From: Patescibacteria group bacterium
Lineage (GTDB): Bacteria; Patescibacteriota; Minisyncoccia; UBA6257; HR35
Assembly (NCBI GenBank): GCA_030549845.1
Contig: JAUQQN010000002.1
Location: 53,307-117,306 of the forward strand
Direction: 5' to 3'
DNA: 64,000 nucleotides
The notes below the pieces were generated by a model. It did not search any database, was not told the origin of the DNA, and worked only from the letters and a program-made list of their open reading frames with translations. The position numbers and the translations under genes were made by a program. The stretch's first letter is position 1, and each line of letters opens with the position of its first letter. This document shows positions 9,706-42,504 of the stretch, one piece after another.

Positions 9706-9745
9706 TTTTCAAGAGAATAAATTTTCATTAAAATTTTATAAAAAA

Positions 9746-24879: not shown

Positions 24880-26381
24880 TATTCAATTTTAGTTTTTTCC
24901 TTCGATCTTGCAAATAAATAATACCACATTGCTATATTTAACAAAATCAAAATTATAACTAAAATCCACGGTGTTGAAATAATACTAAATAATCCTCCAG
25001 CAAAAGCAGCAAGTGGAGCAAATATATTTTCCTTTTTACTTACTTCAATAGTAACTGGAAAATCTTTTTTGGTCCCATTTATACCTGCTGTAATTATCCC
25101 ATAATATTCACCTTCTTCTGCATCACAAGGTACATCAATAGTCCAATTAAATGAATTTATATCATTAGGTAAAACTTCTATAACTCTTGCTTTTGGCTTA
25201 AACCATTTTTTAATCTCCCCACTTATTGTAAAAGATACTTTTCTTTTTTTGCTATTGTTATTAATAATAGTAATATTTATATTATCTTTCTTGCATATAT
25301 ATGTCTTCAAATAATCATCTATAGATATATCCAAATAAGAATTTTGCATTTCTTTTGTAACCAAAGTAGCGGCCGGAGTTGTTGGCTTAGTTACTGGAAC
25401 TCTGACAGTTTGGGTTATTGTTTTTGTGATTGTCTTTGTAATAAATTGCGTTCTTCCTACACTAAGCACAAGTTCTTTTGAAGAAGTAGCACCCTTATCA
25501 TCTACAACTGTAAGCTTTATATTATAAGTCCCTGAACTAAGGGCCCTTGAAAAAGATGGATTTCTTGAAACAATTTCATTATTTATTGACCATTCATAAA
25601 GAATTATTCTACCATCAGGATCATAAGAGCCAGCTGAAGAGAAGGTTACAATTGTTCCTGGTTTAATTAAGGTTGGAGAATAAGTTATATTAGCAATAGG
25701 TTTTTGATTTTGAGATGTTATAGTTGTCTGTTGAATTTCACGGGAAATTACATTTACACTACAATTTGTGGCTCTTGAAATACCATCTGAATAAACTGTT
25801 AAATAAACATAATAAGTACCTGGAGTATAAAACGTTTTTTGGCAAATAGATGAATTTCCAACACAATCTCCAGACCAGGAATATGAATAATATCCTGTTC
25901 CCCCAGATACGTTAGAATAGAAAGTAACTAAACTTCCTACATAAGCTGGGTTGGGTGCTGAATAGCAAGAAACACTTAAATCAGATTGCTGGGTTCCACA
26001 AGTAGTTGTAAAAGATCTAATTTCCCCATAATTTATTCCGGCGGAGTTTTTTGCTACTGCTCTATAATAGTATGTTGTACAAGGATTTAAATTAAATATT
26101 GTATAACAAAATCTATAAGGAGTATAAGTAACATTCAGGGTTTGAACGGGCGTAGTATTAGTTAAAGCAGTGGTTCTTCCCCATTCAAACCAAACCTGAA
26201 TATTTTGATCCCCTCCTGTATCAGTTATTTCACCAACTAAAGTAGCTTGAGTATCAGTATAGGTTGATCTGCTTGGACAAGCTTGCGCATTTACATCGTA
26301 TAATCCTAAAAACAAAACAAACAATGCAACTAACATTATTTTTAATTTGCTTTTTATAAATCTTTCTTTTTTTATTTGCAT
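24879..26381 (-). CDS. Secreted, C-terminally membrane-anchored protein with an FN3-like N-terminal domain and a PKD-like domain
   Basis: Signal peptide. Domain CPS...ATLVGEITDTGGDQNIQVWFEWG...PYRFC...CTTYYYRAVAKNSAGINYGEIRSFTT. PKD-like segment YDPDGRIILYEWSINN...YNIKLTVVDDKGATSS. C-terminal TM helix. Confidence 0.6.
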   Translation of the reverse strand: MQIKKERFIKSKLKIMLVALFVLFLGLYDVNAQACPSRSTYTDTQATLVGEITDTGGDQNIQVWFEWGRTTALTNTTPVQTLNVTYTPYRFCYTIFNLNPCTTYYYRAVAKNSAGINYGEIRSFTTTCGTQQSDLSVSCYSAPNPAYVGSLVTFYSNVSGGTGYYSYSWSGDCVGNSSICQKTFYTPGTYYVYLTVYSDGISRATNCSVNVISREIQQTTITSQNQKPIANITYSPTLIKPGTIVTFSSAGSYDPDGRIILYEWSINNEIVSRNPSFSRALSSGTYNIKLTVVDDKGATSSKELVLSVGRTQFITKTITKTITQTVRVPVTKPTTPAATLVTKEMQNSYLDISIDDYLKTYICKKDNINITIINNNSKKRKVSFTISGEIKKWFKPKARVIEVLPNDINSFNWTIDVPCDAEEGEYYGIITAGINGTKKDFPVTIEVSKKENIFAPLAAFAGGLFSIISTPWILVIILILLNIAMWYYLFARSKEKTKIE

Positions 26382-26746
26382 TTTGTCTTTATTGATCTAA
26401 TTTCCCCATAATTTATTCCGGCGGAGTTTTTTGCTACTGCTCTATAATAGTATGTTGTACATTTTTTTAATTTATTCACATTTATACAATATATTCCTGG
26501 TTTGCTTAATTTTATTGATTTTGTCTTAAACATTAAACTTGATGAAGAAGATCCGTACTCAAACCAACCTTCTACATATTTGTCATTTCCTAAACTATCA
26601 ACTTTTCCTACAAAAATTATATTATTTTTATTAGCAATAGTTCTCTGGGGACATTTTATTGAAATAGTATTCACCGCAAAAACCCTAGAAGCTAAAAATG
26701 TAAAGAATATTAAAATACTTATTAAAAGGATAAATAATTTCTTCAT
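26372..26746 (-). CDS. Secreted FN3-like paralog (124 aa)
   Basis: Signal peptide plus the same domain, ending ...CTTYYYRAVAKNSAGINYGEIRSIKTKCK. Shares a 68-bp identical DNA segment with the upstream paralog. Confidence 0.55.
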   Translation of the reverse strand: MKKLFILLISILIFFTFLASRVFAVNTISIKCPQRTIANKNNIIFVGKVDSLGNDKYVEGWFEYGSSSSSLMFKTKSIKLSKPGIYCINVNKLKKCTTYYYRAVAKNSAGINYGEIRSIKTKCK

Positions 26747-26796
26747 TTTAATCGTCTTTCTTTTTAATAATATTTTTCTCTATAAATAGTGTTTTT

Positions 26797-27489
26797 TTAT
26801 AATGTTTGAACTGCAGGTAAAGTAATAACAGCAGGCGGATTAGCTCTTACATCCACAGTTACAGAATCAGAAACAGATTGATTGTATCCAGAACAAGTGA
26901 TAGTAAATGTATATCTTCCAGAGCTTAAATTAGAAATTACTTGTGAACCAGAAACTGATTTACTACCACTCCAAGCTGAAACCCATGGACTACTTTGAGC
27001 TGAGCAGGATGAAACATCTCTAGATGTCCAAGAAAGTGTAACACTTTCTCCAGGTAATATTGTTATTGTACCATCAGTACCATTAACCTTTAAATCAACT
27101 TCAGGTCTTACACACAATGTTGTAAATGACATTATATCACCATAAGAAGTACCACCAGAGTTTTGGGCTACAGCTCTATAGTAATATGTTGAGCATGGGG
27201 TTAAATTACTAATAGAAGAACAAAATCTATAAGGAACATTATCAACTCTTAAATATTGCTTTGATGTACTTCTTCCTAGAGAACTGGTTTCCCCCCACTC
27301 AAACCATGCAGTTATATTTTTATCTCCTCCTGTATCATTAATTTGACCTACTAATGTAGCTGCAGTGTGTGTGAATGTTGTATTAGAAGGACAAGAAGAT
27401 TGAGCAAAAGATTTGAGATTCAAACTAAAACCTAAACCTAATAGAGCAATAAGCAAAATACCTAAAGATATTACTTTTCCTCTATTCAT
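26797..27489 (-). CDS. Secreted FN3-like paralog (230 aa)
   Basis: Signal peptide plus CPSNTTFTHTAATLVGQINDTGGDKNITAWFEWGETSSL...CSTYYYRAVAQNSGGTSYGDIMSFTT, followed by a second beta-rich domain. Confidence 0.55.
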   Translation of the reverse strand: MNRGKVISLGILLIALLGLGFSLNLKSFAQSSCPSNTTFTHTAATLVGQINDTGGDKNITAWFEWGETSSLGRSTSKQYLRVDNVPYRFCSSISNLTPCSTYYYRAVAQNSGGTSYGDIMSFTTLCVRPEVDLKVNGTDGTITILPGESVTLSWTSRDVSSCSAQSSPWVSAWSGSKSVSGSQVISNLSSGRYTFTITCSGYNQSVSDSVTVDVRANPPAVITLPAVQTL

Positions 27490-27660
27490 TTTTTGTACTT
27501 TTAGAGATTAATTAAGACCTTTTACTAAAAATAACCCAAGCTTCTAATTAATTTTCGACTTATTAATAAATGTCATTAAATTATAAAATTTTTCTGCCCT
27601 ATAGTCAAGACCCTTAGTAAAGAACAAAATTATTTAAAAAAATACAATTTTTAAATCTTT

Positions 27661-28281
27661 TTAATGAGGTTTTTTAAAGCACACTAAGTTATAATTTATA
27701 GATTTTGATTCTTTTGAAAGGTATTCTTCAATTTCTGTAATCAAAGTGCCTGTTACAAGAATAGTTTTATTTTTTTTACTAAATTGAATTTTTTCCTCTC
27801 TTAAAACTTGCTCAAGATAATCATTACTTGGAAATATCCTAGCTTCTCCTCCTGGTTTTAAAACTCTTAAAATTTCCATAACAGATCGTCTTATGTTTTC
27901 TTTTGACATTTCTTCATCTTCGGAGGTTAAATATAAAGGCATTCCATATAATGATAACACTAAGTCAAATGAGTTATCTTGAAATGGTAACTGTAAAAAT
28001 GAAGCAGCAATTAATCCTAATTTATCAGAGTTATATAAATAGGGTTGAGCTTCTTTGATTTCTTTTCTTCTTTCCTCTTCCTTTAAAGTAATATCTAATC
28101 CTACAACCTCTGCTTTATCTTCTATTTTTTGAAGAAGCTCTCTTGGAAATCTTTGCAATCTTCCTGATCCCAAGTCTAATATTTTTTTACCTTTTAGTTC
28201 TTCTATATTTAAATCTAGTAGCTCTAAATAATTTTTGAGAGACCGGTCTGTTATCATTATTTTTCTTTCGATTTTTTTCAT
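27661..28281 (-). CDS. Class I SAM-dependent methyltransferase
   Basis: Motif I KILDLGSG. Motif post-II FDLVLSLYG. RVLKPGGEARIF. Confidence 0.75.
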   Translation of the reverse strand: MKKIERKIMITDRSLKNYLELLDLNIEELKGKKILDLGSGRLQRFPRELLQKIEDKAEVVGLDITLKEEERRKEIKEAQPYLYNSDKLGLIAASFLQLPFQDNSFDLVLSLYGMPLYLTSEDEEMSKENIRRSVMEILRVLKPGGEARIFPSNDYLEQVLREEKIQFSKKNKTILVTGTLITEIEEYLSKESKSINYNLVCFKKPH

Positions 28282-28285
28282 AAAC

Positions 28286-29074
28286 TTAAACTAAAAACTT
28301 AATTAGTTTGTTACTCAATAGGGGTAAATATTTCCTTCCTATATTCTCCCCTATTTTAATTTTTTCTTGTGCGTTTAGAAAATCATACCATTTAACTTCA
28401 TATGGCAGATTTACATTTATAACAAAATCCGCGTTTTTAACATTAAATTTAGCAAGGTTATATTCTAATATTTTTAAAGAATAATCTGCTACTTCTAAAA
28501 TATTGTAGTGACCCTTGAGAGAAAAATTATAATTACTTAAATTTACAGCAATCACAAAATCCGCTCCCATTTTTCTTACTACATCAACAGGAACAGGCAA
28601 TGAAATTCCACCATCTACTAGCATTTTATTATTTATTTTCACTGGAGCAAAAATAAAAGGAATTGAAATACTTGCTCTAATAGCAGTAGATAATTTTCCT
28701 TTATCTATTACATAATAATCTCCAGAAGATAAATCAGTTGCAATTGCTCTAAAGGGAATTAAGCAATTTTCTATTTTTTTATCACCTAAATAATACTCTA
28801 AAAAATTTTTTATCTTTTCCCCACTTATTAAGCCAGATTTAAAATCAGGATCAAAAAATAAAGAAAATAAATCTTTCCAATCTGTATCAATAGCTATTTC
28901 TTCAATTTTATCTATAGAAAATCCTGCACAATAAAAACCTCCTATTAATGCGCCTATGCTTGATCCTGCAATAAAATTAATAGGAATTTTATTTTCTATT
29001 AAAACTTTTAGAATACCTATATGAATTAACCCCCTAGCTCCCCCAGCACCTAATGCTAATCCTATTTTTATCAT
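28286..29074 (-). CDS. Patatin-like phospholipase
   Basis: Oxyanion GxGxxG (LGAGGARG), nucleophile elbow AGSSIG, and catalytic-Asp motif DGG. Confidence 0.85.
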   Translation of the reverse strand: MIKIGLALGAGGARGLIHIGILKVLIENKIPINFIAGSSIGALIGGFYCAGFSIDKIEEIAIDTDWKDLFSLFFDPDFKSGLISGEKIKNFLEYYLGDKKIENCLIPFRAIATDLSSGDYYVIDKGKLSTAIRASISIPFIFAPVKINNKMLVDGGISLPVPVDVVRKMGADFVIAVNLSNYNFSLKGHYNILEVADYSLKILEYNLAKFNVKNADFVINVNLPYEVKWYDFLNAQEKIKIGENIGRKYLPLLSNKLIKFLV

Positions 29075-29093
29075 ACCTTCATTGATTTATTTG

Positions 29094-29801
29094 CTATTGA
29101 GATTGTTTTTGAGATTGTTGTTGAATTTGTTGTTTAATTTGCTCAATAATCTGAGAAAGGTCTACACCAAAAGATTCTTTTATCTTGGTTTTTAAATTTT
29201 CTAATGTTTTCTCAATATTCTCGAATTTCCTCTCCATAATTGCTTGAGTTTTTCTTTCTAAAACAACAATTTTTTTAGCTAAAAATTGAGAACCGTTCCA
29301 AATGCCAAAAATTTTAACTCTTTCTCCAATTTTTATATCAGTAGTATTTATAAGTTGCGGATTAACTTGAGCCAATAATCTTAAATTTATACTTGATATT
29401 ACCTTTGTATCAGTTCCTATATGCCAATCAATCTTAAAACCTTGTGAGTTAATAGTTAATATATTATTCTCATTTCTATCTACAATACCTTGCTGAACCG
29501 TAAAACCAACTGGGTTTAAAAAGAAGAACTCAGCTTTTATTCTATTTGTTATTTTTTCTCTTACAAAATCATCGAGGTCTTTAAACTCCCCAAGTTGCTG
29601 TTTGTTTAAAGGAGGAGTTTTAATTTCAATTTTATTAGGATTTATCTTAACAAATGGAGCTTTTTCTTTAAATAATTCAATTTTAGGAGCTGGAACTATT
29701 ACTGGAGTAGAAGTAACAACAGGATTTATCTCTTCAGCTTTTGCAATTAAACCAAACAAAAAAAGAAAACCTACTATCCCTCCAATTAAAATTTTTCTCA
29801 T
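29094..29801 (-). CDS. Secreted hypothetical protein with a Q-rich C-terminus
   Basis: Signal peptide and a coiled/Q-rich tail (QQIQQQSQKQSQ); no catalytic motif. Confidence 0.4.
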   Translation of the reverse strand: MRKILIGGIVGFLFLFGLIAKAEEINPVVTSTPVIVPAPKIELFKEKAPFVKINPNKIEIKTPPLNKQQLGEFKDLDDFVREKITNRIKAEFFFLNPVGFTVQQGIVDRNENNILTINSQGFKIDWHIGTDTKVISSINLRLLAQVNPQLINTTDIKIGERVKIFGIWNGSQFLAKKIVVLERKTQAIMERKFENIEKTLENLKTKIKESFGVDLSQIIEQIKQQIQQQSQKQSQ

Positions 29802-30423
29802 TACTTAAAAATTATATTTAATTCGACTTAACAAGTTAATAACTATTTAATTACTTTGATTTTTTAGGTCTCTTTTTAGAACCACAACTTTTTGCCATTT
29901 TTTGTCTACGATATTTTAAAAATTTAAATCCGACCTTTAAAAATTATAACAAAATTTCAGAAATAAAATAAAAAACAAATTGTATAATAGTTTCTTAGCA
30001 TTTATTATGTTTAAGCAAAAAATAAAATTTTAACAAATTCAGGAATTATTGAAATTTCTCATGCAGAAATTTAAAAAAGAATCATGCAAGGAATTTATAA
30101 AAAGGAGCTAAGCTCAGGATTAAAAAATTATTAATTCCTTCTAAAAACAGTTCTGTTAAAAATCACTATAAAAACTTGCTTCAAAATTTTTATAGCAAAG
30201 AGGCATCAAGATTAAAAAATTATTTATTTCATATAAATTTTTAATGTGACTTATTTGCTTTATGCGTAATTACTATTTGCTCTTATTCTTTTGGTGCTTG
30301 CACATCTTATCTACTCCAAAATTACATCATAAAATTTTCCCAAAAACAATAATTGTAAGACGCAGTTTGATAAAAAAAATTGTAATAGTAAAATTTTTAA
30401 GTAATACTTATGGAACTCGAAAA

Positions 30424-32172
30424 ATGTTTGTAAAAAGAAAATCTAATTTTAAATTTATTATAATTACTCTTCTCATCGTTATTATTGAAATAGTTCTAGG
30501 ATATTATTTTAGGCCAATTTCAGAAAAAATAAGCGGCAGTAAAAATCGAATAAGAATATCTGCTGGAATCGTACCTCATCATTTATTGGCAAAAAATATT
30601 ATAGAAAATTTTTTCCGGTACATTTCTTCAAAAGATGAACCCGAGGTGATTGTTTTGTTAAGTCCTGACCATTTTAAAGTCGGGAGTATTGTGGGAGATT
30701 TTTTTATAACACTAGAACCACAAACTTTAGAATTCTATGGGATGAAAATTGATAGGCCACTTATTAAAAATCTTTATTTTGAAAATAATATTTTTTTTAG
30801 CAATTCAAGCATTAAACTCGACCATGGAATTATAAATTTAATGCCTTTCATAAAAAAATATTTTCCTAACAGTAAAGTTGTGCCGTTTATTATACCTTCT
30901 AGTATTTCTAAAAAAGCAGTAGACCAATTTGTAATCTCTCTAAATCGCTTTGCACCTAAAAAAACAATAGTAATTGCTAGTGTTGATTTTTCTCATTATC
31001 TTCCAGTTCCAGCGGCTAGATTCCATGATGTTAAAAGTATTCGTACTATAATTAATTTCGAAAAAGAAAATTTTGAAAAATTAGATGTGGACTCTTGGCA
31101 AGCTCTTTATATTGCAAGAGCTTTTGCTCATAAAATGAAGATGGAATCACCAAAACTAATCGCTTACGCAAATTCTCATGATATTACCAAAAATTCAATA
31201 AGCAAGGAAGTAACTTCGTATTTCAGTGTTGTCTTTGAAAAAGAAACTCAAAATAAAGAAAGAGCAAACAGATTTGAAGGGAAAACAATTTTATTTGTTG
31301 GAAACATTATTCTAGATAAAAGCATAAAGCATATGACACAAAAAAATAGTGTCTTTTATCCATTCGAAAAAATCAAGCAATTTCTAAAAGGAATTGATCT
31401 TTTAGTAGGAAACCTAGAGGGCGTGATTGTTGAAAACCCAGAAAAATTTGATAACCATTCATTAAAGTATGTTCTTCCTCCAGAAATAGTTAAGGCATTT
31501 TCCCATACGAATTTTAATTTATTTTCATTGTCGAATAAACACGCATTTGATATGGGAGAAACAGGCTTGGAACAAACCAAAAAATTTTTAACCAAAGCAA
31601 ATATCAACTTTGTTGGTCATCCGAATGAATGTAATAAAAATTCAAAGTTTGAAAAAAATGAAATAATAATTCTATCTTTTAAAAAAACTTCCTTCTCCAA
31701 TTGTTCTGATAAAGAAATTATAAATCATATAAAAACCGTAAGAGCTCTTAATATAAAAAAATTCATAATAGTTCTTTTACACTGGGATGAAGAATATCAA
31801 TCAAAAAATTTTCTGCTACAACAAAAATTAGCCCATCAAATAATTGATAGTGGAGCAGATTTGATAATCAGTTTTGGGATTCCAATTGTTCAAAAAATAG
31901 AAGAATATAAAAGGAAACTAATTTTCTATTCTTTGGGTAATTTTATTTTTGGTCAACATTTTTCAAAGGAAACTTCACAAACCTTAGCAATAGGTTTAGA
32001 AATTTATTCACAAGAAGTTATTTTTAGACTATTTCCAATTAAAAATCAACTAGGTCAGCCATTTTTGATGGATAGAAAAGAAGCAAATTTATTTCTAGAA
32101 AAATTAGCCGAAAAAAGTTCTAACTCTTTGTCTGACAAAATTAAAAGCGGTATAATAGTAATTAAGAGATGA
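30424..32172 (+). CDS. Fusion protein: N-terminal Memo1-like domain plus C-terminal CapA-like (PGA-synthesis type) metallophosphatase domain
   Basis: N-terminal half: ISAGIVPHHLL...VIVLLSPDHF...DHGIINLMP...IASVDFSHY (Memo-like His cluster). C-terminal half: LSNKHAFDMG (GNHEFD-type), LLHWDEEYQ (HWGxEY-type), GADLIISFGIP, YSLGNF (CapA signature). Single N-terminal TM helix. Start taken at the internal Met of the track ORF. Confidence 0.55.
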   Translation: MFVKRKSNFKFIIITLLIVIIEIVLGYYFRPISEKISGSKNRIRISAGIVPHHLLAKNIIENFFRYISSKDEPEVIVLLSPDHFKVGSIVGDFFITLEPQTLEFYGMKIDRPLIKNLYFENNIFFSNSSIKLDHGIINLMPFIKKYFPNSKVVPFIIPSSISKKAVDQFVISLNRFAPKKTIVIASVDFSHYLPVPAARFHDVKSIRTIINFEKENFEKLDVDSWQALYIARAFAHKMKMESPKLIAYANSHDITKNSISKEVTSYFSVVFEKETQNKERANRFEGKTILFVGNIILDKSIKHMTQKNSVFYPFEKIKQFLKGIDLLVGNLEGVIVENPEKFDNHSLKYVLPPEIVKAFSHTNFNLFSLSNKHAFDMGETGLEQTKKFLTKANINFVGHPNECNKNSKFEKNEIIILSFKKTSFSNCSDKEIINHIKTVRALNIKKFIIVLLHWDEEYQSKNFLLQQKLAHQIIDSGADLIISFGIPIVQKIEEYKRKLIFYSLGNFIFGQHFSKETSQTLAIGLEIYSQEVIFRLFPIKNQLGQPFLMDRKEANLFLEKLAEKSSNSLSDKIKSGIIVIKR

Positions 32173-34742
32173 AAAATTTTCCCCAGCAAATTAATCCATC
32201 CAAAACTATATTATCAATTATTTTAGTAGGATTAGTTATTTTAGGAAGTATTTATGTTAGCATTTTTTATTTTAAAAAAAGATCCCCAAAGCCTCCATTA
32301 ACAAAAATATCACCCATTCAATCCTCTCCTGTTTTTAATGAAGTTTTATTTACAAAAAGATTGATCAAACCCGAGGATATTGCTTTAGAAAAAGTTCAGA
32401 TTATTCCCCAAATCCCTAAATATAATTTACCTCTTAAGACTAAAGACATTGCCAATTATCCAAAATTCTCTCAAAAAATTCGTTTAAGTTCTCGAGCTTT
32501 ATCTCTTTTAGAAAAAAATGGATTTGTAGCAATTACTACGCCAAAAGAGATTGCTAATAAAGAAAGTGTAACTTCAATAGGAGAAAATAGCAAAATAAGC
32601 TATCCAAAAGACGATTTTGCAGCTTTTTATATAGCTTTACAAACATTAGATTTACCGATTTTTATTACTACTGATTCACTTTTACATTTCTACCACATCC
32701 TTTTTAATACTACTTTGATGAAATTAGAAAAAGATCTTTTTTATTCAGATCTTTGGCTAATAAGCAAGGAATTTTTTGATGACGCTCTTTTCCAATATAA
32801 CAAAACCTCTGGAGATTTAAAGGAAGCAGCTAAAAGAAATGTAGCCTATTTTTCAGTCGCTCTAGAATTGCTAAAGCCAAAGCCGCATCAAGTTGCAACA
32901 AAAGAAAATATCCAAAAAGAAATCGAATGCTATCTGCCTTCAGAAACTTGTGAAGAAATTATTTCAAATCAATTAAAAGAAGGAAAACTTTTTAGCTTAT
33001 TTACGCCTGAAGAATTTAAAAAATATTCATTTCAACCACCAGATTTTGTAAAAGATCTGGTTCAAAAGGAAATTCAACTAATTGAAAATCATAAAGGTTG
33101 GGAGAATTCTCCGATTTTCATATACAAAGAAGATTACTCTCAGTACATTCCAAGGGGCCATTATAGCAGATCTGAAAAACTTAAAAATTATTTCAAAGCA
33201 ATGATGTGGTATGGTAGAATGACAACTTTGATTAAAGGATCTCCTAATTTACCAAAGGGGGTATCTAAATGTTCAGAGTATGGAATTATTTCTGAATATG
33301 ATGCTAAAATTCAGACTCTCCAAGCAAGTTTAATCGCTAGTAAATTTTTAAAAAGCCATGATATCCAGAAAAGATGGGAGAGAATCTATAAAATTACTTC
33401 TTTTTTTGTTGGATTTTCTGATGATTTGGGCCCATATGAATATAGTATTGTGTTAAAAAGTTTATTTAAGGGGGAAATTAAACTAGAAAAATTGGAAGAA
33501 AAATATTCAGAAATTAAAAACATTCTCCTTAATCTTCCTTATAATCCAAAAATTTATGGAGGGTTAGGGGCTTGCCAGCTATCTATGCCTTGTCCACCTC
33601 TTTCAGACCAAGAAATTCAAGAATTAAAACTCCAAGAAAAAAAACTTATAGAAGCAACAAAAGGGCTTAGATTAATGGGACAAAGATTCACTATTGATTC
33701 TTGGTTCTTTTCGGAACTTGTTTCTCCTTATTCTGGGATATACATTGGTAATAAAACCACTCGTCCATTCACTCTTGTAAAAACTCAAATTCCTGGTTGC
33801 CAAGAAGGAAGAGAAATAAGAGGCTTTCCTAGGGGGTTAGATATTATGGCCTTACTAGGATCAAAAAGAGCTAAAGAAATTTTGAAAGAATTAGGAGATA
33901 CGGCTTATTCAGATTATGAAAAGAAATTTTCTGAATTAAAGAAAGAATTAGATACTTTACCTCAATATAAATGGTTCGAGAATCTTTATTGGGGATGGCT
34001 TTATGTTTTGAAATCTTTATTAGGTGAATTTGGCGAAGGGTATCAAACCTTTATGCAAACAAAGGCCTGGCAAGATAAGGAACTAAATACTGCTTTGGCT
34101 TCTTGGGCAGAGCTAAGGCATGATACAATTTTGTATACAAAACAAAGTTATACCGGTGCTGAAATGGGTTCTGTAGAAGAACCACCAATCGTTGGTTATG
34201 TTGAGCCAATACCTGAATTTTATGCTCGACTTTTAACTTTAACAAAAATAACAAGTAAGGGCTTGAAAGAATTAATACCAAAAGAAAATTTAGAAAAATT
34301 AAAAATAGAAGAAGTCTTAACGGAATTTTCAAAAATTTTAACGAAATTATTAGAAATCTCAAAAAAAGAATTAGAAAATAAACCATTAAATCAGGAAGAA
34401 TATGATTTCATCCAATATTTTGGAGTAAATTTGGAAAACCTTGTTCGATTGGTTGCACAAGCTGAACCAGATCCTGATATTTTTAAAACAACTTTAATCG
34501 CTGATGTTCACACTGAAAGCAATACTAAAAAAGTTTTGGAAGAAGGAGTAGGGTATATTAAAACTTTAGTAGTAGCTTATAAACTTCCAGACGGTCGAAT
34601 TTTAATTGGAGTTGGGCCTATTTTTAGTTATTATGAATTTAAGCAACCAATGGAAAATAGATTAACTAATGAAACTTGGAGGTTAATGTTGCAAGAAAAT
34701 CCTCCTTCTTCACCAGAATGGACGAGAAGCTTTTCAGAATAA
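32169..34742 (+). CDS. Large (857 aa) membrane-anchored hypothetical protein, possibly DUF3160-like
   Basis: ATGA start/stop overlap with the upstream fusion gene. N-terminal TM. Conserved-looking segments IPRGHYSRSEKLKNYFKAMMWYGR and ELRHDTILYTKQSY. No enzymatic motif recognised. Confidence 0.4.
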   Translation: MKNFPQQINPSKTILSIILVGLVILGSIYVSIFYFKKRSPKPPLTKISPIQSSPVFNEVLFTKRLIKPEDIALEKVQIIPQIPKYNLPLKTKDIANYPKFSQKIRLSSRALSLLEKNGFVAITTPKEIANKESVTSIGENSKISYPKDDFAAFYIALQTLDLPIFITTDSLLHFYHILFNTTLMKLEKDLFYSDLWLISKEFFDDALFQYNKTSGDLKEAAKRNVAYFSVALELLKPKPHQVATKENIQKEIECYLPSETCEEIISNQLKEGKLFSLFTPEEFKKYSFQPPDFVKDLVQKEIQLIENHKGWENSPIFIYKEDYSQYIPRGHYSRSEKLKNYFKAMMWYGRMTTLIKGSPNLPKGVSKCSEYGIISEYDAKIQTLQASLIASKFLKSHDIQKRWERIYKITSFFVGFSDDLGPYEYSIVLKSLFKGEIKLEKLEEKYSEIKNILLNLPYNPKIYGGLGACQLSMPCPPLSDQEIQELKLQEKKLIEATKGLRLMGQRFTIDSWFFSELVSPYSGIYIGNKTTRPFTLVKTQIPGCQEGREIRGFPRGLDIMALLGSKRAKEILKELGDTAYSDYEKKFSELKKELDTLPQYKWFENLYWGWLYVLKSLLGEFGEGYQTFMQTKAWQDKELNTALASWAELRHDTILYTKQSYTGAEMGSVEEPPIVGYVEPIPEFYARLLTLTKITSKGLKELIPKENLEKLKIEEVLTEFSKILTKLLEISKKELENKPLNQEEYDFIQYFGVNLENLVRLVAQAEPDPDIFKTTLIADVHTESNTKKVLEEGVGYIKTLVVAYKLPDGRILIGVGPIFSYYEFKQPMENRLTNETWRLMLQENPPSSPEWTRSFSE

Positions 34743-35110
34743 ATGATAAATAATATTTACGGTTGAAATATTTTAAAAAGCAGACCCAGAAGTTTTAACA
34801 TGTTCATTTGGGATAAATATAAACTTAATTTTTAAAGATTATAAAAGCATAAAAAATTTTAAATTTTGATATGATTAATTCCAGTTTTTATTTCAAAACT
34901 AAGTTTTAAAATATGTAAATATCTTTCGCTCTTATATAAAAATAGAATCTTTATGGCTAAGTAAATATTAAAAAAAATCGCCATTTAATTTCTTCATAGA
35001 GATTATTAATATTTGGAAGCTTAAAGAACTATAGAAAAGTGCAAAAAGCTAGGTATCCTCTATAAACATAAACTTGAAGGATTGATAGATTTAGAGACCT
35101 ATAAAGCTAA

Positions 35111-35464
35111 AAAACTGAAATAGAAAGGGAGATTAGCTCTTTACAGGATTCACTAAAGAGATTGTTTGAAACAGATATTGATTACTTAGATTTAGGTGTT
35201 AATCTTTTAGAACTATGTAAAAAAGCAAGGTTTTTATATGAAAATGCAACTATTGAAGAAAAACGAGAATTAATAAATTTAGCTTTTCAAAAAATTTTGA
35301 TAAAAGATAAAACATTTATTTTCGAATATTCTCCTTGGTTCGCAATTTTACACAAACACTCCGGATTAATTAAAGAAATTTGCGAACTCGAAAAAAGCAA
35401 GAATTTAAAAGAAGAAAATGAAATTTTAGAGAAAGTTTATCCTAAAATGCTCTACCTATATTAA
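35111..35464 (+). pseudogene. C-terminal fragment of a large serine recombinase (integrase); N-terminal catalytic domains missing
   Basis: The in-frame stretch after the stop at 35108 reads KTEIEREISSLQDSLKRLFETDIDYLDLGVNLLELCKKARFLYENATIEEKRELINLAFQKILIKDKTFIFEY, which matches the coiled-coil plus ...FDNSTFDEKR.L...I.KI.L....I.I.W tail of large serine recombinases. No upstream resolvase or recombinase domain ORF exists in 34743-35110. A TTG start was used by the ORF track. Confidence 0.5.
35366..35407 (+). repeat. Direct repeat copy A (42 bp, 1 mismatch vs 39713-39754)
   Basis: ttaattaaagaaatttgcgaactcgaaaaaagcaagaattta inside the recombinase fragment. A second shorter repeat pair lies at 35659-35684 and 39651-39677. 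Confidence 0.8.
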
Positions 35465-35823
35465 TGAACCGCAAATGTTAGATAGAGATAGTATAACACA
35501 GATTTTAAGTTTTGAATCTATCTTTAGTTAAATATTATTTACTCACCACCTTTACTATTATTTTGAAGTACAATCTTAGTTGAGACAAAAGGGGCAACAA
35601 AATATAGTGAAGAAATAATAAAGAAAACAAGAAATTATATAGAAAATTATAGAAAGTCCTTTCAATCTTTCATTAGTTCGTTGGGGATCCAAAAATAAGA
35701 GGGAAACCAAAAATAAAGTTGACAAGACTTTTATAACTATTTTTCACTAAATTATGAAGTATAATAGATTTAAGATAATAGATTTAAGATGGTATTTTTC
35801 TAAAAAAGTACAATAAAAACAGC

Positions 35824-38301
35824 ATGGTTATAAAACAAGGCAAATCTGAACCCAATTTAAAATATATATTAATCATAGTTGTTCTGAGTATTATTGTCGG
35901 GGGAATCGTTATCTGGAACTATTTGATTGTATTGCGGGAAAAAGAACTACAAATAAAAAAACCACAAGAAAAAGAGATTATTAAGTTGGAGGGTAGATTA
36001 TACCGGAAAAAAATCACTTTTGATCTGAAAAATACTGAAACGCTTAAAAATTTTCAAATTTCTTTAAAATTAGATACCTTATCTTTAATAAGGGAAGGAA
36101 AGTTATCTCTTGATTGCGGAAATATTAGGTTTACAGATTCTGATAAGGAAACAGAGATTCCTTATTGGATAAAAGGTAAGTGTGGAGAGAATAATACTGA
36201 AATCTGGTTAAGAGTGCCAGAAATCTTACCTAATTCAAAAAAAACCATTTATGTTTATTACGGCAACGAGGCTAAACCTTCAACTTCAAATTTTGATGAA
36301 GTCTTCAAAACCAATAATTTTTTGTTGGGTTGGTACTATTTTAGTGAGCTAGATAAGCTAAAAGTGACAGATCTTTCTATGAGTAAAAACAACGGAAAAA
36401 TTTTTGGATTAGATTATGAGTTGGTACCATCAAAGATGACATTAGATTGCGAAAATGAGAATGGATGTTTTGTGTTTTTAGATAATTGGGGCAAAGAATG
36501 GGAGTGGACTGATATTCCCGATGCTTATTTTGAAATTCCTTCAGAAAAATTAAATTTTAATAAATTACAAGGATCTATTGAGATGTGGGTTAAACCGAAA
36601 AATGCAAGATCAGGAAAATATCAGAGATTGGTAGTTGATAGTAATTGGGAGATTGAGTTAGGAATTAATCCTAACGGTGATTTATATTTCTATCCAGCAC
36701 AAGCGCCAAAAGATAATTATAACATGATAAATAACCCGTTAAAAAACGATGAGTGGAATCATATAATAGTTACTTGGAATTTTGAAAATAAAGAGGTCAT
36801 TTTCTATATCAATGGAGAAAAAAAGAAAAATGACGTTGAGAATGTTCCAAGATATTGGAAAGAAATGGCAAAAATAGGAAATTTGCAAATTGGAGGAACT
36901 AATTTAGGAATTGAATCTGCATTTGTAGGGTATATAGATGGAGTGAGAATTTATAATAAAGCTTTAGATAGTAAAGAGGCAAAAATGGCTTATAAATATA
37001 ACAGAAGAAACATAAGATATCCAACAATTTCTTTTGGGGCAGAAGAGTTGATTTCGGTAGGGAAATTAAAGGATACGGTTTTTGACTCTTCAATTGTAGA
37101 AAATATCCCTATGACTGATAAAATTAAGATTGGTACTTGTTATGCCACACCACTTCACATAGGGTATAGCTATTATCCTAGCGAGGGAAAATACATCAAT
37201 CCTTCAACCAAAGAAGCTTTCTTTTTGATTCATAGATTAAAAGATGAAGATCTTCCTATTTTTGGTGTACCAAGTCACTTTTTCCCATATGAAGGAGCAT
37301 TTGTTAAATTTGAAGATGCCTTTTTATTATCTTACATAGGATTAGAAATCAATAACCCCAAATTAATTAAAGATTTAAAAATTGAATTTAAGAAAGTAAA
37401 GAGTTATGAACCTGGAATAATTGAGCGTTGGGGGGAACTAATTCCTACTGCCTATGCGTGTGGTCCTTACTATAGTTATAAAACAGTTGGAGATTCGGAA
37501 TTTTCTTTTATAGGAGAAAAAAATGGAATATATTGGTATAAATTGAAAAATCCAATTTTCGTTGACCAAGAAGTTACAATGATGCAACTTTATTACAAAC
37601 CTACTGGCGAAGAAGGAATGCTTTCTATTAGGGTTAACGATATGGTTTTTATTGATAGAAATAAAAAGCTTGTTCGCCCTACTTTTTCTAAAGATTCAAA
37701 AAAACCAATTGAGACAGAAGGAGCGGATTTTTTCTCAGAAATGTATGTTCTTCCTTACTGCCCTCCTGGTGAGAAATATTTTGAGAAATATTTAGCATAT
37801 TTTGCTAAAGAAGAAAAAGGATTTATCATTTTTAAACAAAACCTCGATACACAAAAATTAGAGTTATCTTTTGAAAACCGCGGAAAAGACCAGATTATTA
37901 TTGACCATCAATCTATTTGGAATATTGAAACTCAATTAATAAAATGGAGGGTTAAAGATATCAAAATTCGAGATTTAAATGATAACATTATTTATAAGCT
38001 CTCAATGGATGAAATCAAAAATCAGATATTTGGTAAGAAAATAGACCCAGGTGGAGCAATAAAAATACCTCTTATTTCTCTTAAAGATTTGCAAAAAAAT
38101 ACATTTTATCACATTACTATTGGTACGGGTGAAGAATCGAAACTTGAAGAAGTAACAAATCAAAAAAGAATTATCAAGTGGGTTCTCGGTGATTCACCTT
38201 ACTATTATCCTCGATATCGTTTTAATAATGATCTTTATTTGTACCGTTTAAATGTGGCTCAAGATGGCTCTATCAGTTTCGAAGAAGTAAGGTCGAAATA
38301 A
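35824..38301 (+). CDS. Membrane-anchored DUF2341 plus LamG (concanavalin A-like lectin/glucanase) domain protein
   Basis: N-terminal TM. DUF2341-like LDCGNIRFTDSDKETEIPYWIKG...EIWLRVPEILPNSKKTIYVYYGN. LamG-like GSIEMWVKPKNARSGKYQRLVVDSNWEIELGINPNGDLYFY...WNHIIVTWNF...GYIDGVRIYNKAL. Confidence 0.65.
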   Translation: MVIKQGKSEPNLKYILIIVVLSIIVGGIVIWNYLIVLREKELQIKKPQEKEIIKLEGRLYRKKITFDLKNTETLKNFQISLKLDTLSLIREGKLSLDCGNIRFTDSDKETEIPYWIKGKCGENNTEIWLRVPEILPNSKKTIYVYYGNEAKPSTSNFDEVFKTNNFLLGWYYFSELDKLKVTDLSMSKNNGKIFGLDYELVPSKMTLDCENENGCFVFLDNWGKEWEWTDIPDAYFEIPSEKLNFNKLQGSIEMWVKPKNARSGKYQRLVVDSNWEIELGINPNGDLYFYPAQAPKDNYNMINNPLKNDEWNHIIVTWNFENKEVIFYINGEKKKNDVENVPRYWKEMAKIGNLQIGGTNLGIESAFVGYIDGVRIYNKALDSKEAKMAYKYNRRNIRYPTISFGAEELISVGKLKDTVFDSSIVENIPMTDKIKIGTCYATPLHIGYSYYPSEGKYINPSTKEAFFLIHRLKDEDLPIFGVPSHFFPYEGAFVKFEDAFLLSYIGLEINNPKLIKDLKIEFKKVKSYEPGIIERWGELIPTAYACGPYYSYKTVGDSEFSFIGEKNGIYWYKLKNPIFVDQEVTMMQLYYKPTGEEGMLSIRVNDMVFIDRNKKLVRPTFSKDSKKPIETEGADFFSEMYVLPYCPPGEKYFEKYLAYFAKEEKGFIIFKQNLDTQKLELSFENRGKDQIIIDHQSIWNIETQLIKWRVKDIKIRDLNDNIIYKLSMDEIKNQIFGKKIDPGGAIKIPLISLKDLQKNTFYHITIGTGEESKLEEVTNQKRIIKWVLGDSPYYYPRYRFNNDLYLYRLNVAQDGSISFEEVRSK

Positions 38302-38320
38302 ATCATAGAATATAGAATTA

Positions 38321-39454
38321 GTGATAATTAGATTAAAGAAAACATTAACCTTATTAATAATTAGTGGAGTTTTCTTTTTAGGTAGTTTATTTATTATTGA
38401 ACTGAAACTTTTAAATCGAGATAAATTCGCACACAACTATTCTTCTTTCATTCAAAACAAAACTATATTACAAGAGAAAAAGAAAATAACTCTTAGAGAA
38501 AAACTTGGACAAAATTTAGTAGTTGGAATTCCAGGCCCTACGCTCGATGAAAGAACAAAAGAAATTTTGCATTACATTAAACCAGCTGGAATTGTGTTAT
38601 ATCGTCGGAATTATAAATCCTATTCTCAACTTAAAGATTTAATTTCCCAGTTACAAAAAATTTCAAATGAAGATACTGGGCTTTTTTATTTCATTATGTT
38701 AGATGAAGAACCAGACGGCGCAATGCGTCTCGGTTTACTTAAAAATGTCTTTCCTCTAGAAATACCTGACTGGAAAACTATTGAAAATGATATTAGAATT
38801 TTGGCAGATATAGGAATTAATGTTGAGCTAGCGCCTATCGCAGATTTTCCATTTAATAACGATGCATTTGTTAAAAGACGAGTTCCAGTAAAGAGTGTCG
38901 AAGACTTAATAGCATTTAATAGAACATTTATCAGCTTACTTAAAGAATATAGAATTTCAGCTACTTTAAAACATTTTCCCGGTATGGGAATTTTTATCGA
39001 AGATCCTCACGAAAAGATCCCTCATTCAAATATCCAACAAGAAGTTCTTAATAAATCGTTAAAGATTTTTAAAGATGGGATTGAGAATGGGGCTGATTTT
39101 GTTATGACAGGTCACGCAGTATATGAAAATATAGACCCTAATAACCCGGCAACATTTTCTTCTAAAATAGTAAGAGACCTTTTAATACATCAACTCGGTT
39201 TTCAAGGAATTATTATTACCGATGATCTTTCAGATATGCCCCTGGCTATAAAAGGAATAAATCTTGCAGAGGCTGGTATTAGAGCGCTTAAGGCAGGTCA
39301 TCATTTGATAATGTATTCACACAAATTAGAAAAAACAAAAGATATTTTTGATAAAATATATCGCCGCATAGAAAACGATTTTGAATTGCAATCAATTATT
39401 GAGAGTAATTATCAGAAAATTATTGAATTTAAAAAATCTATCTTCTCATATTAA
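38321..39454 (+). CDS. Glycoside hydrolase family 3 N-terminal domain protein (NagZ-like beta-N-acetylhexosaminidase); GTG start
   Basis: KHFPGMG (KHFPGHG motif), MLDEEPDGAMRLG, ELAPIADFP, VMTGHAVY. N-terminal TM anchor. Confidence 0.75.
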   Translation: MIIRLKKTLTLLIISGVFFLGSLFIIELKLLNRDKFAHNYSSFIQNKTILQEKKKITLREKLGQNLVVGIPGPTLDERTKEILHYIKPAGIVLYRRNYKSYSQLKDLISQLQKISNEDTGLFYFIMLDEEPDGAMRLGLLKNVFPLEIPDWKTIENDIRILADIGINVELAPIADFPFNNDAFVKRRVPVKSVEDLIAFNRTFISLLKEYRISATLKHFPGMGIFIEDPHEKIPHSNIQQEVLNKSLKIFKDGIENGADFVMTGHAVYENIDPNNPATFSSKIVRDLLIHQLGFQGIIITDDLSDMPLAIKGINLAEAGIRALKAGHHLIMYSHKLEKTKDIFDKIYRRIENDFELQSIIESNYQKIIEFKKSIFSY

Positions 39455-39712
39455 AAGTTAGCGTAATAAAAATAAAAAACTTGTCATTGCAAAACAACAA
39501 ATCTGAAGATAGGTTTTCTCGAAAAAACACCATTTTAAAATGCTAAAGTCAATGACAATTCTTCTAAAACCCCAAGTTTCAGACGTAGGCTTAATGCAGA
39601 GTCTCTGCCTCCGTTCTTGAAAATAAAATAAGGGCGAGGGAATTAGCTGGCTTTCAATCTTACATTAAGTTCGTTGGAAATTTGATAACAAACCCATTAT
39701 TGCATTTTAGGT

Positions 39713-39754
39713 TAATTAAAGAAATTTGCGAACTCGAAAAAAGTAAGAATTTAT
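39713..39754 (+). repeat. Direct repeat copy B (42 bp)
   Basis: ttaattaaagaaatttgcgaactcgaaaaaagtaagaattta; it lies in a short remnant ORF ending ...RLIKEICELEKSKNLSEF. Confidence 0.8.
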
Positions 39755-39929
39755 CTGAATTTTAAAATTCTATGGTGCCAATAAGAAAGTTGTAATTGCC
39801 ATATCTATCAGTATACATACAATAGATTTACTCCCAGCATTTTTATTCTATTTTTCCATACAACTTCTCTAATAATTCTTTCACTTTTACATTTCATTAC
39901 TTTTATCTCTAAATCCTGCCTTTATTCAA

Positions 39930-40703
39930 TTAAATATGAATGCCAAAGTAAATCAAAATATATTTCAATGAGACATAGAAAAACAAAAGACCAAACAAGA
40001 ATTTCAAGATATTTGGTTTGAATTTTGCTACGAGCTTTGCGCCATAAATTGCGCCGATTAAAGCGCCGATACCCAAAGCAATTGCTACTGGAATATCAAC
40101 AACACCTTGAAAAAGTTTAAAGAAAGCACCCACCAAGGCCATCCAGACAAAAGCAGCCATTGAAGTACCAATTGCCAGCTTTACTGGTGCTTTCAAAAAA
40201 TAGATGTAAGAAGGGACTAAAGCATAACCACCTCCAAGACCGATAATGCCAGTTAAAATGCCAATAGCTGAACCTAAAATTGTTTTTACTAGCGGCTTAC
40301 CTGGAATTTCCACACCTTGCACAGTTTGGCTTTTAGTAAATAATCCTTCATAAAGCATTCGGACCGAAACGATGATAAAAGCAATACCAATAATCAAGTC
40401 AATTAAATTACCGTAATGTTTAATATAACCAAAAACAATTGAACCAATAATTACACCCAAAATTCCTGCATAACCAGTTAAAAGTGCTGTTTCTTTATCA
40501 ACATTTTTCATTTTAAAATGCTGATAAGCACCCGATGCGGCAGTAAAAACTACTGCCGTTAAAGTTGTACCAATAGCAACTGCTGGATCAAAATGAAAAA
40601 CAAAACGAATAACTGGCATTATTAAAGCACAACCTCCAGTACCTAAAAGCCCGCCGATAACTCCAGCCAAGAAACCGGTGATAAGATAAATTAAGTAAAT
40701 CAT
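39930..40703 (-). CDS. TSUP (TauE/SafE) family anion exporter
   Basis: 257 aa, eight TM helices, internal twofold repeat with GxGGG-like motifs (GGLLGTGG / IGLGGGY). Confidence 0.8.
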   Translation of the reverse strand: MIYLIYLITGFLAGVIGGLLGTGGCALIMPVIRFVFHFDPAVAIGTTLTAVVFTAASGAYQHFKMKNVDKETALLTGYAGILGVIIGSIVFGYIKHYGNLIDLIIGIAFIIVSVRMLYEGLFTKSQTVQGVEIPGKPLVKTILGSAIGILTGIIGLGGGYALVPSYIYFLKAPVKLAIGTSMAAFVWMALVGAFFKLFQGVVDIPVAIALGIGALIGAIYGAKLVAKFKPNILKFLFGLLFFYVSLKYILIYFGIHI

Positions 40704-40863
40704 AATTTCTCTTTCTAGTTTTTAATTCCAGAAAAACTCGGAAATTATTAAAATAATTAATGATATATCAAAACTTTCAAAAATTACCAAAGAATTAAAT
40801 ATAGTTTTAATTACTTTAAACAACTACTGAATTAACAAAATTTCAAACAACGTCACTAAATTA

Positions 40864-41526
40864 TTATAATAAACCTTTTTCTTTTAACCTTTTTAATAAC
40901 CTTTCTAACCCCTCAACAATATATTCAACATGAAGAGCGCCGCAAGAAACTAAAATCTTAGCATTAGGATTTTCGCTTAATATGTTATTAATTTTCTCTA
41001 CCGTAACTCTACTTCTTTCTGGTATCATAATTGTAGCTATTATTTCTGCTATTTGTTTCTCTCCTAAATTGAATTGCTTTAGATAATTCTTTAAATAATC
41101 AACCATGTGTTTGTGTTTAAATAATATCCATTCTCGCATCTTTGCTCCACTCATATCACCAGCAATAACCCTTACTTTATTCTTCTTGGCTTCTTCTACT
41201 AACTTTTGATAATCGATAGAAAGTTTTTCAAGTTGAGAAATTTCTACTATTTTGTCCTGTACAAATTCATCAAGGGTTTGTTGCATATCTTCAGAAAGTT
41301 CTAAAATTAAATGAGTATACTGCCCACTTTGCAAAGCAACTATTAATTCAAAAACACGAGGTCGATCGTGAAATTCACCAAAAATATGCACATTACCAAT
41401 TTCAATGAACTCCTTAGAAATTTCTTCTAGGGTTTTTCCTTTTATTTCAATGAGTTTCTTAGAAATTTCTTCTAGAGAAATTCCTGCTAGAGTTTTTCCT
41501 TTTTTGCCTTCTCCAAATTCTTTCAT
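40864..41526 (-). CDS. ChaN-like (Tiki/TraB/GumN superfamily) protein
   Basis: GNVHIFGEFHDRPRVFELIVAL (GExHd-type motif) and VSCGALHV near the C-terminus. The N-terminal region has an internal tandem peptide repeat. Confidence 0.4.
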   Translation of the reverse strand: MKEFGEGKKGKTLAGISLEEISKKLIEIKGKTLEEISKEFIEIGNVHIFGEFHDRPRVFELIVALQSGQYTHLILELSEDMQQTLDEFVQDKIVEISQLEKLSIDYQKLVEEAKKNKVRVIAGDMSGAKMREWILFKHKHMVDYLKNYLKQFNLGEKQIAEIIATIMIPERSRVTVEKINNILSENPNAKILVSCGALHVEYIVEGLERLLKRLKEKGLL

Positions 41527-41721: not shown

Positions 41722-42120
41722 ATGAAGATTATCAATTTGACCCCTCATCCCTGTGTCATCCTGCGGGAAGACCCGCAGGGGGACATCGAAGGTGTCGAAG
41801 GTGTAGGGAGTGAAGTTCGCCGCTACAGAAAAATCGCAGAATTGCCACCGTCCGGCAAGGTGGCACGCGCCAGTCAAAAGGAAGAAATTGCTGGTTTCAT
41901 TTTGGTTAACGACGTGGAGGTCCCCGTAGTCAGAATGACTTACGGGGAACCCATCAATTTACCAGAGCCAAAAGAAGGAGTAGTTTATTTTGTCTCCCTC
42001 CTCACAGCCCAGGCTGCGGCGGCCACCGGACGCCGGACAGATGACTTAGTGTTTGCTGGGAAAACAGTTAGGAGTAAGGAGGGCTCAATAATCGGTATAA
42101 CTTCCTTCGGTAAATTATGA
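41722..42120 (+). CDS. GC-rich (about 50% GC) 133-aa hypothetical protein of likely foreign origin
   Basis: MKIINLTPHPCVILREDPQGDIEGVEGVGSEVRRYRKIAELPPSGKVARASQKEEIAGFILVNDVEVPVVRMTYGEPINLPEPKEGVVYFVSLLTAQAAAATGRRTD... with codon usage unlike the AT-rich host. Has its own promoter, SD and terminator. Confidence 0.55.
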   Translation: MKIINLTPHPCVILREDPQGDIEGVEGVGSEVRRYRKIAELPPSGKVARASQKEEIAGFILVNDVEVPVVRMTYGEPINLPEPKEGVVYFVSLLTAQAAAATGRRTDDLVFAGKTVRSKEGSIIGITSFGKL

Positions 42121-42172: not shown

Positions 42173-42432
42173 CAGTCAAAAAAGAGTATTCGGTTCTCTT
42201 TTTCATGTTTTAGGTTGAAAATAGAATAAGAATTTTAGGTTATTAAGTTCAAATAAAAATAGCCAATTGAAAAACTATAATTTGCGATAGATGTCTTTAC
42301 CTTTTTGATGTGGAGCCAACAACCTCAAGAATTAGCCTTAAATTGTGATTCTTAAATTAAATTAGATAAATTGTGCTATAACTGATTGATTATCAATTAA
42401 TAGAACTGACTTTTAATTTCTCAGCCTCTTTG

Positions 42433-42504
42433 CTCCGGGGGCAGGATTCGAACCTGCGACATCCTGGTTAACAGCCAGGCGTTCTACCGCTGAACTACCC
42501 CGGA
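42433..42504 (-). tRNA. tRNA-Asn (anticodon GTT)
   Basis: 72 nt. U1:A72 and G73. Anticodon loop CTGTTAA. T-loop TTCGAAT. Confidence 0.8.

Follow-up and report, generated by a model that had tools for sequence, protein, structure and literature searches.

A probable scar of a serine-integrase element, carrying a joined-ends junction, near tRNA-Asn(GTT) in a Patescibacteria contig

Serine integrases, the enzymes of phages and elements such as phiC31, Bxb1, A118 (comK) and SPbeta, leave no long direct repeats at the ends of the elements that they insert. Genomic islands linked to tRNA genes and defective ("grounded") prophage remnants form a recognised class of chromosomal relics, and in mycobacteriophages of clusters G, N and P the phage attachment site attP reportedly lies inside a gene whose 3' end is altered upon integration, as Broussard et al. 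are said to have described in 2013. Here we describe a locus in a 64,000-nt window of the AT-rich (GC ~28%) Patescibacteria contig JAUQQN010000002.1, where the dead end of a large serine recombinase (LSR, integrase) gene is joined to the opposite end of its own element about 7 kb from a tRNA-Asn gene. Among Mycobacterium prophages, it is the tyrosine integrases that use tRNA sites, whereas those of the serine type insert elsewhere (PMC10654092). We judge it moderately likely that the feature is the inert scar of a phage-like LSR element which, in this Patescibacteria group, normally inserts at the extreme 3' end of tRNA-Asn(GTT).

All coordinates are positions in the window, while L and P numbers denote the contigs and proteins compared with it; L005 is the contig that carries an intact element. 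The proposed scar and its usual target site comprise the following features:

35043-35452, plus strand: dead 3' third of an LSR gene, located by tblastn with L005:6646-8214
35162-35464, plus strand: annotated 100-aa open reading frame (ORF) with a TTG start, inside the stub region
35448-35452, no strand assigned: common core TGCTC, where homology switches between integrase tail, tRNA-Asn and P' arm at all loci compared
35453-35529, plus strand: P' arm (the opposite, left element end), collinear with L005 attL and with L018, L019 and L021
42432-42504, minus strand: tRNA-Asn(GTT), found by ARAGORN and Rfam, with core TGCTC at 42431-42435

The stub amounts to the last ~137 codons of an LSR of ~522 aa. 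When the intact 522-aa LSR was compared with the window by tblastn, it matched in two pieces, residues 375-398 (35043-35114, frame 0) and 398-511 (35111-35452, frame +2), which are 64% and 75% identical to it (E = 3.8e-39). Since the two pieces lie in different frames, the gene is frameshifted, within an A-run located near 35104-35112; the in-frame recombinase-like stretch is 35111-35464, and homology continues upstream to 35043 in the other frame. Upstream of 35043, tblastn detected no similarity to the L005 LSR. The Resolvase domain (PF00239), which holds the serine nucleophile, had no match in any frame of 34743-35823, and the Recombinase (PF07508) and zinc-ribbon (PF13408) domains are missing from the window copy, whose homology begins only at residue 375. 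What remains matches the part of bona fide LSRs that follows the zinc ribbon, namely the coiled-coil part. Therefore, we regard the stub as a pseudogene fragment and not as a functional LSR gene, and a preliminary description of this DNA, which had read 35111-35464 as the C-terminal fragment of a serine recombinase without its catalytic domain, agrees with tblastn, the profile search and the domain scans alike. As the catalytic domain is lost and the reading frame is broken, this integrase relic is predicted to be inert, with nothing in it active now.

The family was delimited in several steps. With the reconstructed peptide as query, a word-based search for homologs yielded six short ORFs and nothing else, none of them with a Pfam domain; one ends in ...MLRGQDSNLRHRG, which is the antisense of a tRNA T-arm read as protein. 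A hidden Markov model (HMM) built from the six fragments and searched against 1.84 billion representative proteins gave 724 matches at E up to 0.001, among which the proteins of ~500-550 aa aligned at their C-termini (about residues 350-525). When six full-length homologs were scanned, Resolvase and Recombinase were present in 6/6 and Zn_ribbon_recom in 4/6 (not in L005 and P0007); the Resolvase domain was found in L005:6646-8214 (2.2e-21) and in P0007, P0019, P0033, P0045 and P0108. P0396 is the copy of the stub in a sister strain, from an independent Logan assembly; it is 97% identical and has a different 5' boundary, which is consistent with continuing decay of the stub. A Pfam match of the 100-aa ORF to Chibby was below threshold and was discarded as noise.

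The 3' limit of the stub is the most informative part of the locus. Homology between the window stub and the copies linked to tRNA genes ends at 35452, the last base of TGCTC. The adjoining 35453-35529 aligned with L005:94-165 (50/72 identical, a score reached by 0/2000 shuffles) and with the distal P' arm of L018 (39/54 identical, reached by 1/2000 shuffles). Integrase tail, core and P' arm thus follow one another in the window, which therefore holds a joined-ends, attP-type junction and not a junction between element and chromosome. Integration at a secondary (pseudo-attB) site was also considered and is ruled out, given that the sequence to the right of the core is the element's own P' arm. 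TGCTC is likewise present at L005 attL (84-88) and attR (8174-8178), in L018 (216-220) and L021 (363-367), and at the window tRNA-Asn. It is the only sequence common to attL and attR of L005, to the attP of L018, L019 and L021 and to the tRNA-Asn site of the window, and is the predicted crossover core at which the arms would be swapped.

The intact element came from a scan of species-representative genomes, in which the 522-aa LSR of L005, a match to a PHROG integrase family (3.3e-80), adjoins tRNA-Asn. To the right of their tRNA-Asn, L005 and L002 show synteny with window positions 44.6-56.5 kb at 70-87% aa identity; both are genuine relatives of the window genome. The L005 element extends from ~84 to 8178 (~8.1 kb) with TGCTC at both junctions: attL reads TTATTTT-TGCTC-GCCTTTATT (over a longer span, ...TTATTTT-TGCTC-GCCTTTATTTTTGATCTGCGAACTTTAGATAATTATAGCATAA...), and attR reads CTGAAA-TGCTC-CGGGGG, or, continued into the tRNA, ...CTGAAA-TGCTC-CGGGGGCAGG. 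Its genes include a GP3_package small-terminase-like gene (3.9e-19), a DnaJ-domain gene and the integrase, its remaining ORFs having no Pfam or PHROG match; at 8.1 kb, it falls short of the size of a complete tailed phage. No phage-like genes are left in the window stub. Protein and DNA scans of IMG/VR recovered no relatives, the sole match (L020) being an unrelated chance match.

Three contigs, L018, L019 and L021, have the attP-type arrangement, with the integrase tail running through TGCTC into sequence like the left end of L005, and protein P0142 appears to derive from such an arrangement too. A P' arm of ~115 nt is common to the family and the genes beyond it differ (DnaJ, DUF499, DUF1156 and SNF2 genes in L018, others in L019 and L021, phage-like genes in L005); the family therefore shares its integrase and attachment module and varies its cargo. 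In L018, the genes directly behind the P' arm (363-10180) encode DnaJ, DUF499, a DUF1156 methyltransferase-like protein and a SNF2/ResIII helicase, a cargo that looks like a defence system. Because the core lies inside the integrase ORF, the last codons of the gene differ between the two states: it ends in ...EML-AYIS... in the free form and in ...EML-RGQDSNLRHPA, followed by the stop, in the integrated form.

In five relatives (L001, L002, L003, L005 and L011), the integrase tail lies directly against the 3' end of tRNA-Asn(GTT); in L001, L002 and L003 the fragment runs into this end with the tRNA on the opposite strand. Here, instead, the stub tail is joined to the P' arm and the core of the tRNA-Asn is 6,978 bp from that of the stub. 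The 3' flank of the window tRNA-Asn contains neither integrase nor P' arm, and hence the site looks unoccupied; the B arm of L005 has no similarity to this flank or to 34743-35042. This usual home of the family fell outside the coordinates covered by the preliminary description.

Further observations concern this tRNA site. The pieces beside tRNA-Asn at L001:8664-9443, L002:1947-2484 and L003:9962-10261 are truncated or frameshifted integrase C-termini, and the annotated ORFs of L001 and L002 begin at a near-identical residue (..HK[DE]EIETRK..), a common start that reflects either shared ancient decay or some retention. In L011 (Candidatus Parcubacteria bacterium, BPJH01000002.1; positions 5376-5611), a decayed remnant of the integrase tail still lies against the 3' end of tRNA-Asn(GTT), whose anticodon loop is split by a group I intron (Rfam RF00028, 63.6 bits, E = 6.7e-16); because of this interruption ARAGORN missed the tRNA. 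In the window, a 132-aa ORF at 41722-42120 (plus strand), 310 bp from the 3' end of tRNA-Asn, has a strong ribosome-binding site (RBS; aaaggagg) and ~50% GC. It matches two PHROG families of unknown function (1.6e-15 and 2.1e-14), and tblastn showed similarity to hypothetical proteins from phages of Bacillus and Paenibacillus and from a Methanofastidiosa virus; the ORF was probably acquired recently, from a foreign source, at this hot spot. Elsewhere in the window, ARAGORN called a tRNA-Phe with the unusual anticodon AAA at 21999-22073 (minus strand), beside tRNA-Ala and tRNA-Pro; its Rfam score of 43.9 bits is far below those of the remaining tRNAs, and the window also has a normal tRNA-Phe(GAA), at 63155-63226.

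The integrase 3' end also contains an inverted repeat, and parts of this region recur downstream among a set of direct repeats:

35337-35388, no strand assigned: 12-bp inverted repeat, GGTTCGCAA.TTT - 26 nt - AAA.TTGCGAAC, inside the integrase 3' coding region
35366-35407, plus strand: repeat X, 42 bp, coding for LIKEICELEKSKNL of the integrase tail, 41-82 nt upstream of the core
35659-35684, plus strand: repeat Y, 26 bp, inner left copy, 139 bp upstream of the LamG start
39651-39677, plus strand: repeat Y', 27 bp, inner right copy, 196 bp downstream of the GH3 stop
39712-39753, plus strand: repeat X', 42 bp, 41/42 identical to X, an isolated integrase-tail patch (residues 480-494 by tblastn)

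The inverted repeat was near-invariant, synonymous positions included, in 7/7 loci (window, L001, L002, L003, L005, L018 and L021). A structure alignment gave 12 pairs, 11 of them identical in all seven sequences and the outermost showing a G-U/G-C change, with no covariation. The motif AAATTTGCGAAC is found once per integrase 3' end at every locus, and an extra copy of TTGCGAAC was seen in the P' arm of L018 and L019, with TGCGAAC in L005. This 52-bp region resembles a recombinase binding site, yet it lies 60-111 nt from the core. The repeat survives in L011, whose copy is the most decayed, and in X'; its right arm is contained in X.

X and X' are in direct orientation, 4346 bp apart, and no shuffle of the window gave two matches to the 42-bp repeat. 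A single mismatch and a single indel separate Y from Y' (E = 7.5e-5 by local blastn), and both repeat pairs are well above what chance would produce, although their 17-nt core alone is not rare, at least two matches having been found in 7/100 shuffles. The preliminary description had noted both pairs: its 42-bp repeat with one mismatch is real, the second copy having been placed one base off, and its 26/27-bp pair is real as well, but the order that it called swapped is in fact nested (X, Y, [LamG-GH3], Y', X'), with all copies direct. Nor do the repeats bracket the whole 9-kb stretch as it had proposed, since they enclose only the right half, LamG-GH3. It had also taken these long direct repeats for scars of integration, whereas the actual junction signature is the 5-bp core TGCTC. 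X' and Y' were examined as a second, diverged integrase tail or attP, and the comparisons of the X' flanks with the integrase, L018, a reconstructed L005 attP and the window sequence after X yielded nothing significant. A tRNA remnant was also sought next to the stub and behind X', where local alignments scored no higher than those of shuffled sequence.

The genes around the scar are the following:

30262-34742, plus strand: Memo/PGA_cap fusion and DUF3160, an overlapping pair (Pfam)
35824-38301, plus strand: LamG/DUF2341 surface-type protein, 825 aa (Pfam Laminin_G_3 2.1e-22, DUF2341 5.6e-17)
38321-39454, plus strand: glycoside hydrolase family 3 (GH3) protein, 377 aa (Pfam Glyco_hydro_3 3.8e-38), paired with LamG
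39930-40703, minus strand: TauE/SafE (DUF81) membrane protein

Together, the four genes of the first three entries form a run of large plus-strand genes at 30262/30424-39454, with minus-strand genes on both sides (24091-29801 and 39930-41526). The strand pattern noted earlier thus stands for the run itself but not for the DNA beyond 39.9 kb, where 41722-42120, 46849-48905 and 54432-55028 are plus-strand genes. The long non-coding flanks are likewise present, 29802-30261/30423 (460-622 bp) and 39455-39929 (475 bp) being, with 34743-35823 (1081 bp), among the seven longest gaps of the window. Rfam recognised no known RNA families besides tRNAs in the non-coding stretches, and promoter and terminator scans showed no enrichment over shuffles.

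The Memo/PGA_cap-DUF3160 pair, with the same overlapping stop and start, was found in four other Patescibacteria contigs (L007, L008, L009 and L010), where its neighbours are uvrB, minCDE, ftsW, greA and other genes of this kind, and a recombinase is absent from the vicinity. Homologs of DUF3160 numbered 4362 at E up to 1e-30; among these, the best 120 are 58-72% identical. Being conserved without a recombinase, the pair is chromosomal and does not belong to the element. The Memo/PGA_cap ORF has 636 aa in the window and 576-582 aa in relatives; translation probably starts at the ATG of 30424 (MFVKRKSNFKF..., then a membrane helix), which would give an upstream non-coding gap of 622 bp. This gap contains a 32-nt imperfect direct repeat (30114-30145 / 30206-30237, 84%).

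The LamG-GH3 pair has a counterpart in L006 at 77-81% nt identity (LamG 70% aa and 77% nt; GH3 at 3649-4788), downstream of tRNA-Met, tRNA-Met and tRNA-Asp, and its flanks there have no similarity to those in the window. L006 is the only other genome in which the pair was found. Inverted repeats of 78 nt (90% complementary) and 31 nt (94%) surround it (L006:1026-1117 / 4891-5065), the right arm bearing a ~66-bp insertion, and the L006 pair could be an invertible or mobile cassette. TauE has matches of 76-91% aa identity in lineages very remote from one another (Desulfobacteraceae, Syntrophales, Thermodesulfobacteriota and Parcubacteria), and is 80% identical to that of the archaeon Methanothermus fervidus; its local GC is raised (0.33-0.40), and the gene is either extraordinarily constrained or widely transferred horizontally.

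Considering how such a scar could arise, a joined-ends junction in a chromosome would seem to require two head-to-tail copies of the element. These might have come about by integration of a dimer, or by Campbell-type homologous recombination between an incoming circle and a resident stub; integrase stubs are common at tRNA-Asn in the relatives. The integrase of the second copy would then have been eroded to X', 4.3 kb downstream, and deletions would have taken nearly everything else. As judged from sequence, the best explanation for X' is a second, head-to-tail copy, of whose integrase it would be the last trace. Y and Y' may mark a separate event, in which the LamG-GH3 module would have been inserted or duplicated. 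Several points weigh against this history. We could not reconstruct a route that places an attP-type junction 7 kb from tRNA-Asn, and blastn found neither a second P' arm nor an attL in the window. X' is not followed by integrase tail, core or tRNA and neither of its flanks aligns with the element, so that the second copy is deduced from 42 bp only. Y and Y' are without a demonstrated mechanism. Finally, L011 has TauE on that side of tRNA-Asn and AA_kinase where the window has it too; part of the 7 kb is therefore probably native, which complicates a simple tandem at the tRNA.

A different history would make 35453 to ~39800 a single element copy, in the order P' arm, LamG, GH3, integrase, with LamG-GH3 as its cargo and the integrase later cut to 42 bp. 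The two integrase-tail repeats in direct orientation, the P' arm right after the first of them, the habit of the family to carry differing genes behind a shared P' arm, and the occurrence of LamG-GH3 in another, likewise repeat-bracketed context in L006 are all consistent with such a copy. However, a mere 42 bp of the putative second integrase is present with no core or arm behind it, the base composition of LamG-GH3 is ordinary, the L006 pair stands beside tRNAs and a chromosomal-looking gene on a 5.3-kb contig with no integrase, and Y and Y' are left unexplained; we consider this history doubtful, though worth keeping in mind. The preliminary description had gone further and taken all of 29.8-39.9 kb for one decayed integrative element, with the recombinase fragment in its middle and the repeats as scars. 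The strand switch and the long gaps at both ends, together with a recombinase relic within the block, invited that interpretation, which we rate the least probable of those considered here. Recognisable element DNA is limited to ~0.5 kb (35043-35529) and the 42-bp patch X', and the left 4.5 kb is the conserved chromosomal pair, seen in four other contigs without a recombinase; for these reasons the 9-kb block is not one mobile element. Moreover, the repeats bracket only 35.4-39.75 kb, the integrase relic and the element's own junction (35448-35452) fall inside the block, whereas the intact relative has its integrase at the element edge by the attachment site, and base composition shows no discontinuity at 29.8 or 39.9 kb. 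What survives of the earlier proposal is the relic of an integrative element, in the form of an integrase stub and an attP-type scar.

Two further explanations bear on the junction itself. The window derives from a 124-kb contig of a metagenome-assembled genome and attP-type contigs of the family do occur in metagenomes, so that the junction or X' might be a chimeric join of chromosomal reads with reads of a free element. We consider such an artefact highly improbable: the stub is degenerate (frameshifted, cut at residue 375, with a diverged P half-site), as an element that is free and active would not be; an independent assembly contains a 97%-identical stub with boundaries of its own; and 42 bp should be below the assembly k-mers that typically cause chimeras. 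It is also very improbable, in our opinion, that the fragment, or the inverted repeat with its att-like site, is retained under selection, be it as a decoy, as a dominant-negative coiled-coil peptide or as a 3' trailer of tRNA-Asn. C-terminal stubs do recur by tRNA-Asn in L001, L002, L003 and L011, with nearly the same 5' boundary in L001 and L002, and the inverted repeat is invariant at synonymous sites too and survives in L011 and X'. Against retention, the window, L002 and L003 copies are frameshifted, the 5' boundaries of the stubs differ (residues about 261, 344, 375, 405 and 407), the window ORF starts with TTG with no start-codon or RBS context shown, and neither covariation nor a known RNA family was found. 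A more speculative variant, to which we give little credence, is that the inverted repeat and the att-type half-sites of the stub could serve incoming integrases as a cis-site (decoy or landing site), and that serine-recombinase events there and at pseudo-sites could move small cassettes of chromosomal genes, LamG-GH3 for instance, between tRNA-linked loci in genomes of the candidate phyla radiation. It is suggested, circumstantially, by the persistence of the inverted repeat even in the most decayed copies and in X'; Y and Y' contain the half-site-like motif AGTTCGTTGG.

For annotation, these results mean that the 9-kb stretch of surface or cell-wall-type genes should not be labelled a mobile element, that the 100-aa ORF is a piece of a pseudogene, and that the real integration hot spot is tRNA-Asn(GTT). 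More widely, the compared loci establish attP, attB, attL and attR for a small serine-integrase element family in Patescibacteria, whose core TGCTC coincides with the 3' end of the tRNA. Little is known of the phages and mobile elements of these uncultured organisms, and a serine integrase with a defined, tRNA-embedded site could become a genetic tool for bacteria of the candidate phyla radiation (CPR). The window scar has no predicted function of its own.

Among described systems, the serine-integrase phages and elements named at the outset are matched by the intact L005 homolog in its Resolvase and Recombinase domains and its long C-terminal region of coiled-coil type; L005 also has a Cys-rich, zinc-ribbon-like stretch that escapes Pfam, which detects the domain in four other homologs. 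The very short (5-bp) core shared by the attachment sites of the family and the integrase gene at the element edge beside attP fit the same pattern. Unlike typical members, the family targets a tRNA gene, at its very 3' end, and has its core inside the integrase ORF, and the window retains only a dead stub. With the tRNA-linked islands and grounded prophages, the window shares an integrase pseudogene fragment close to a tRNA that serves as integration hot spot, extended non-coding gaps, a gene of foreign composition by the tRNA (41722-42120, 50% GC) and signs of successive events at one locus. It differs from them in lacking direct repeats derived from the tRNA, since its enzyme belongs to the serine recombinases, and in keeping a joined-ends attP-type junction 7 kb from the tRNA instead of abutting it. 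As in the mycobacteriophages of clusters G, N and P, the predicted crossover site of this family lies inside an ORF, that of the integrase, and integration would swap its C-terminal tail, a likeness that holds for the intact relatives and not for the window stub; those phages, unlike this family, use tyrosine integrases, and their affected gene is the repressor. Altogether, the window holds a fairly ordinary genomic scar, a further case of an already known type, the decayed remnant of an LSR element.

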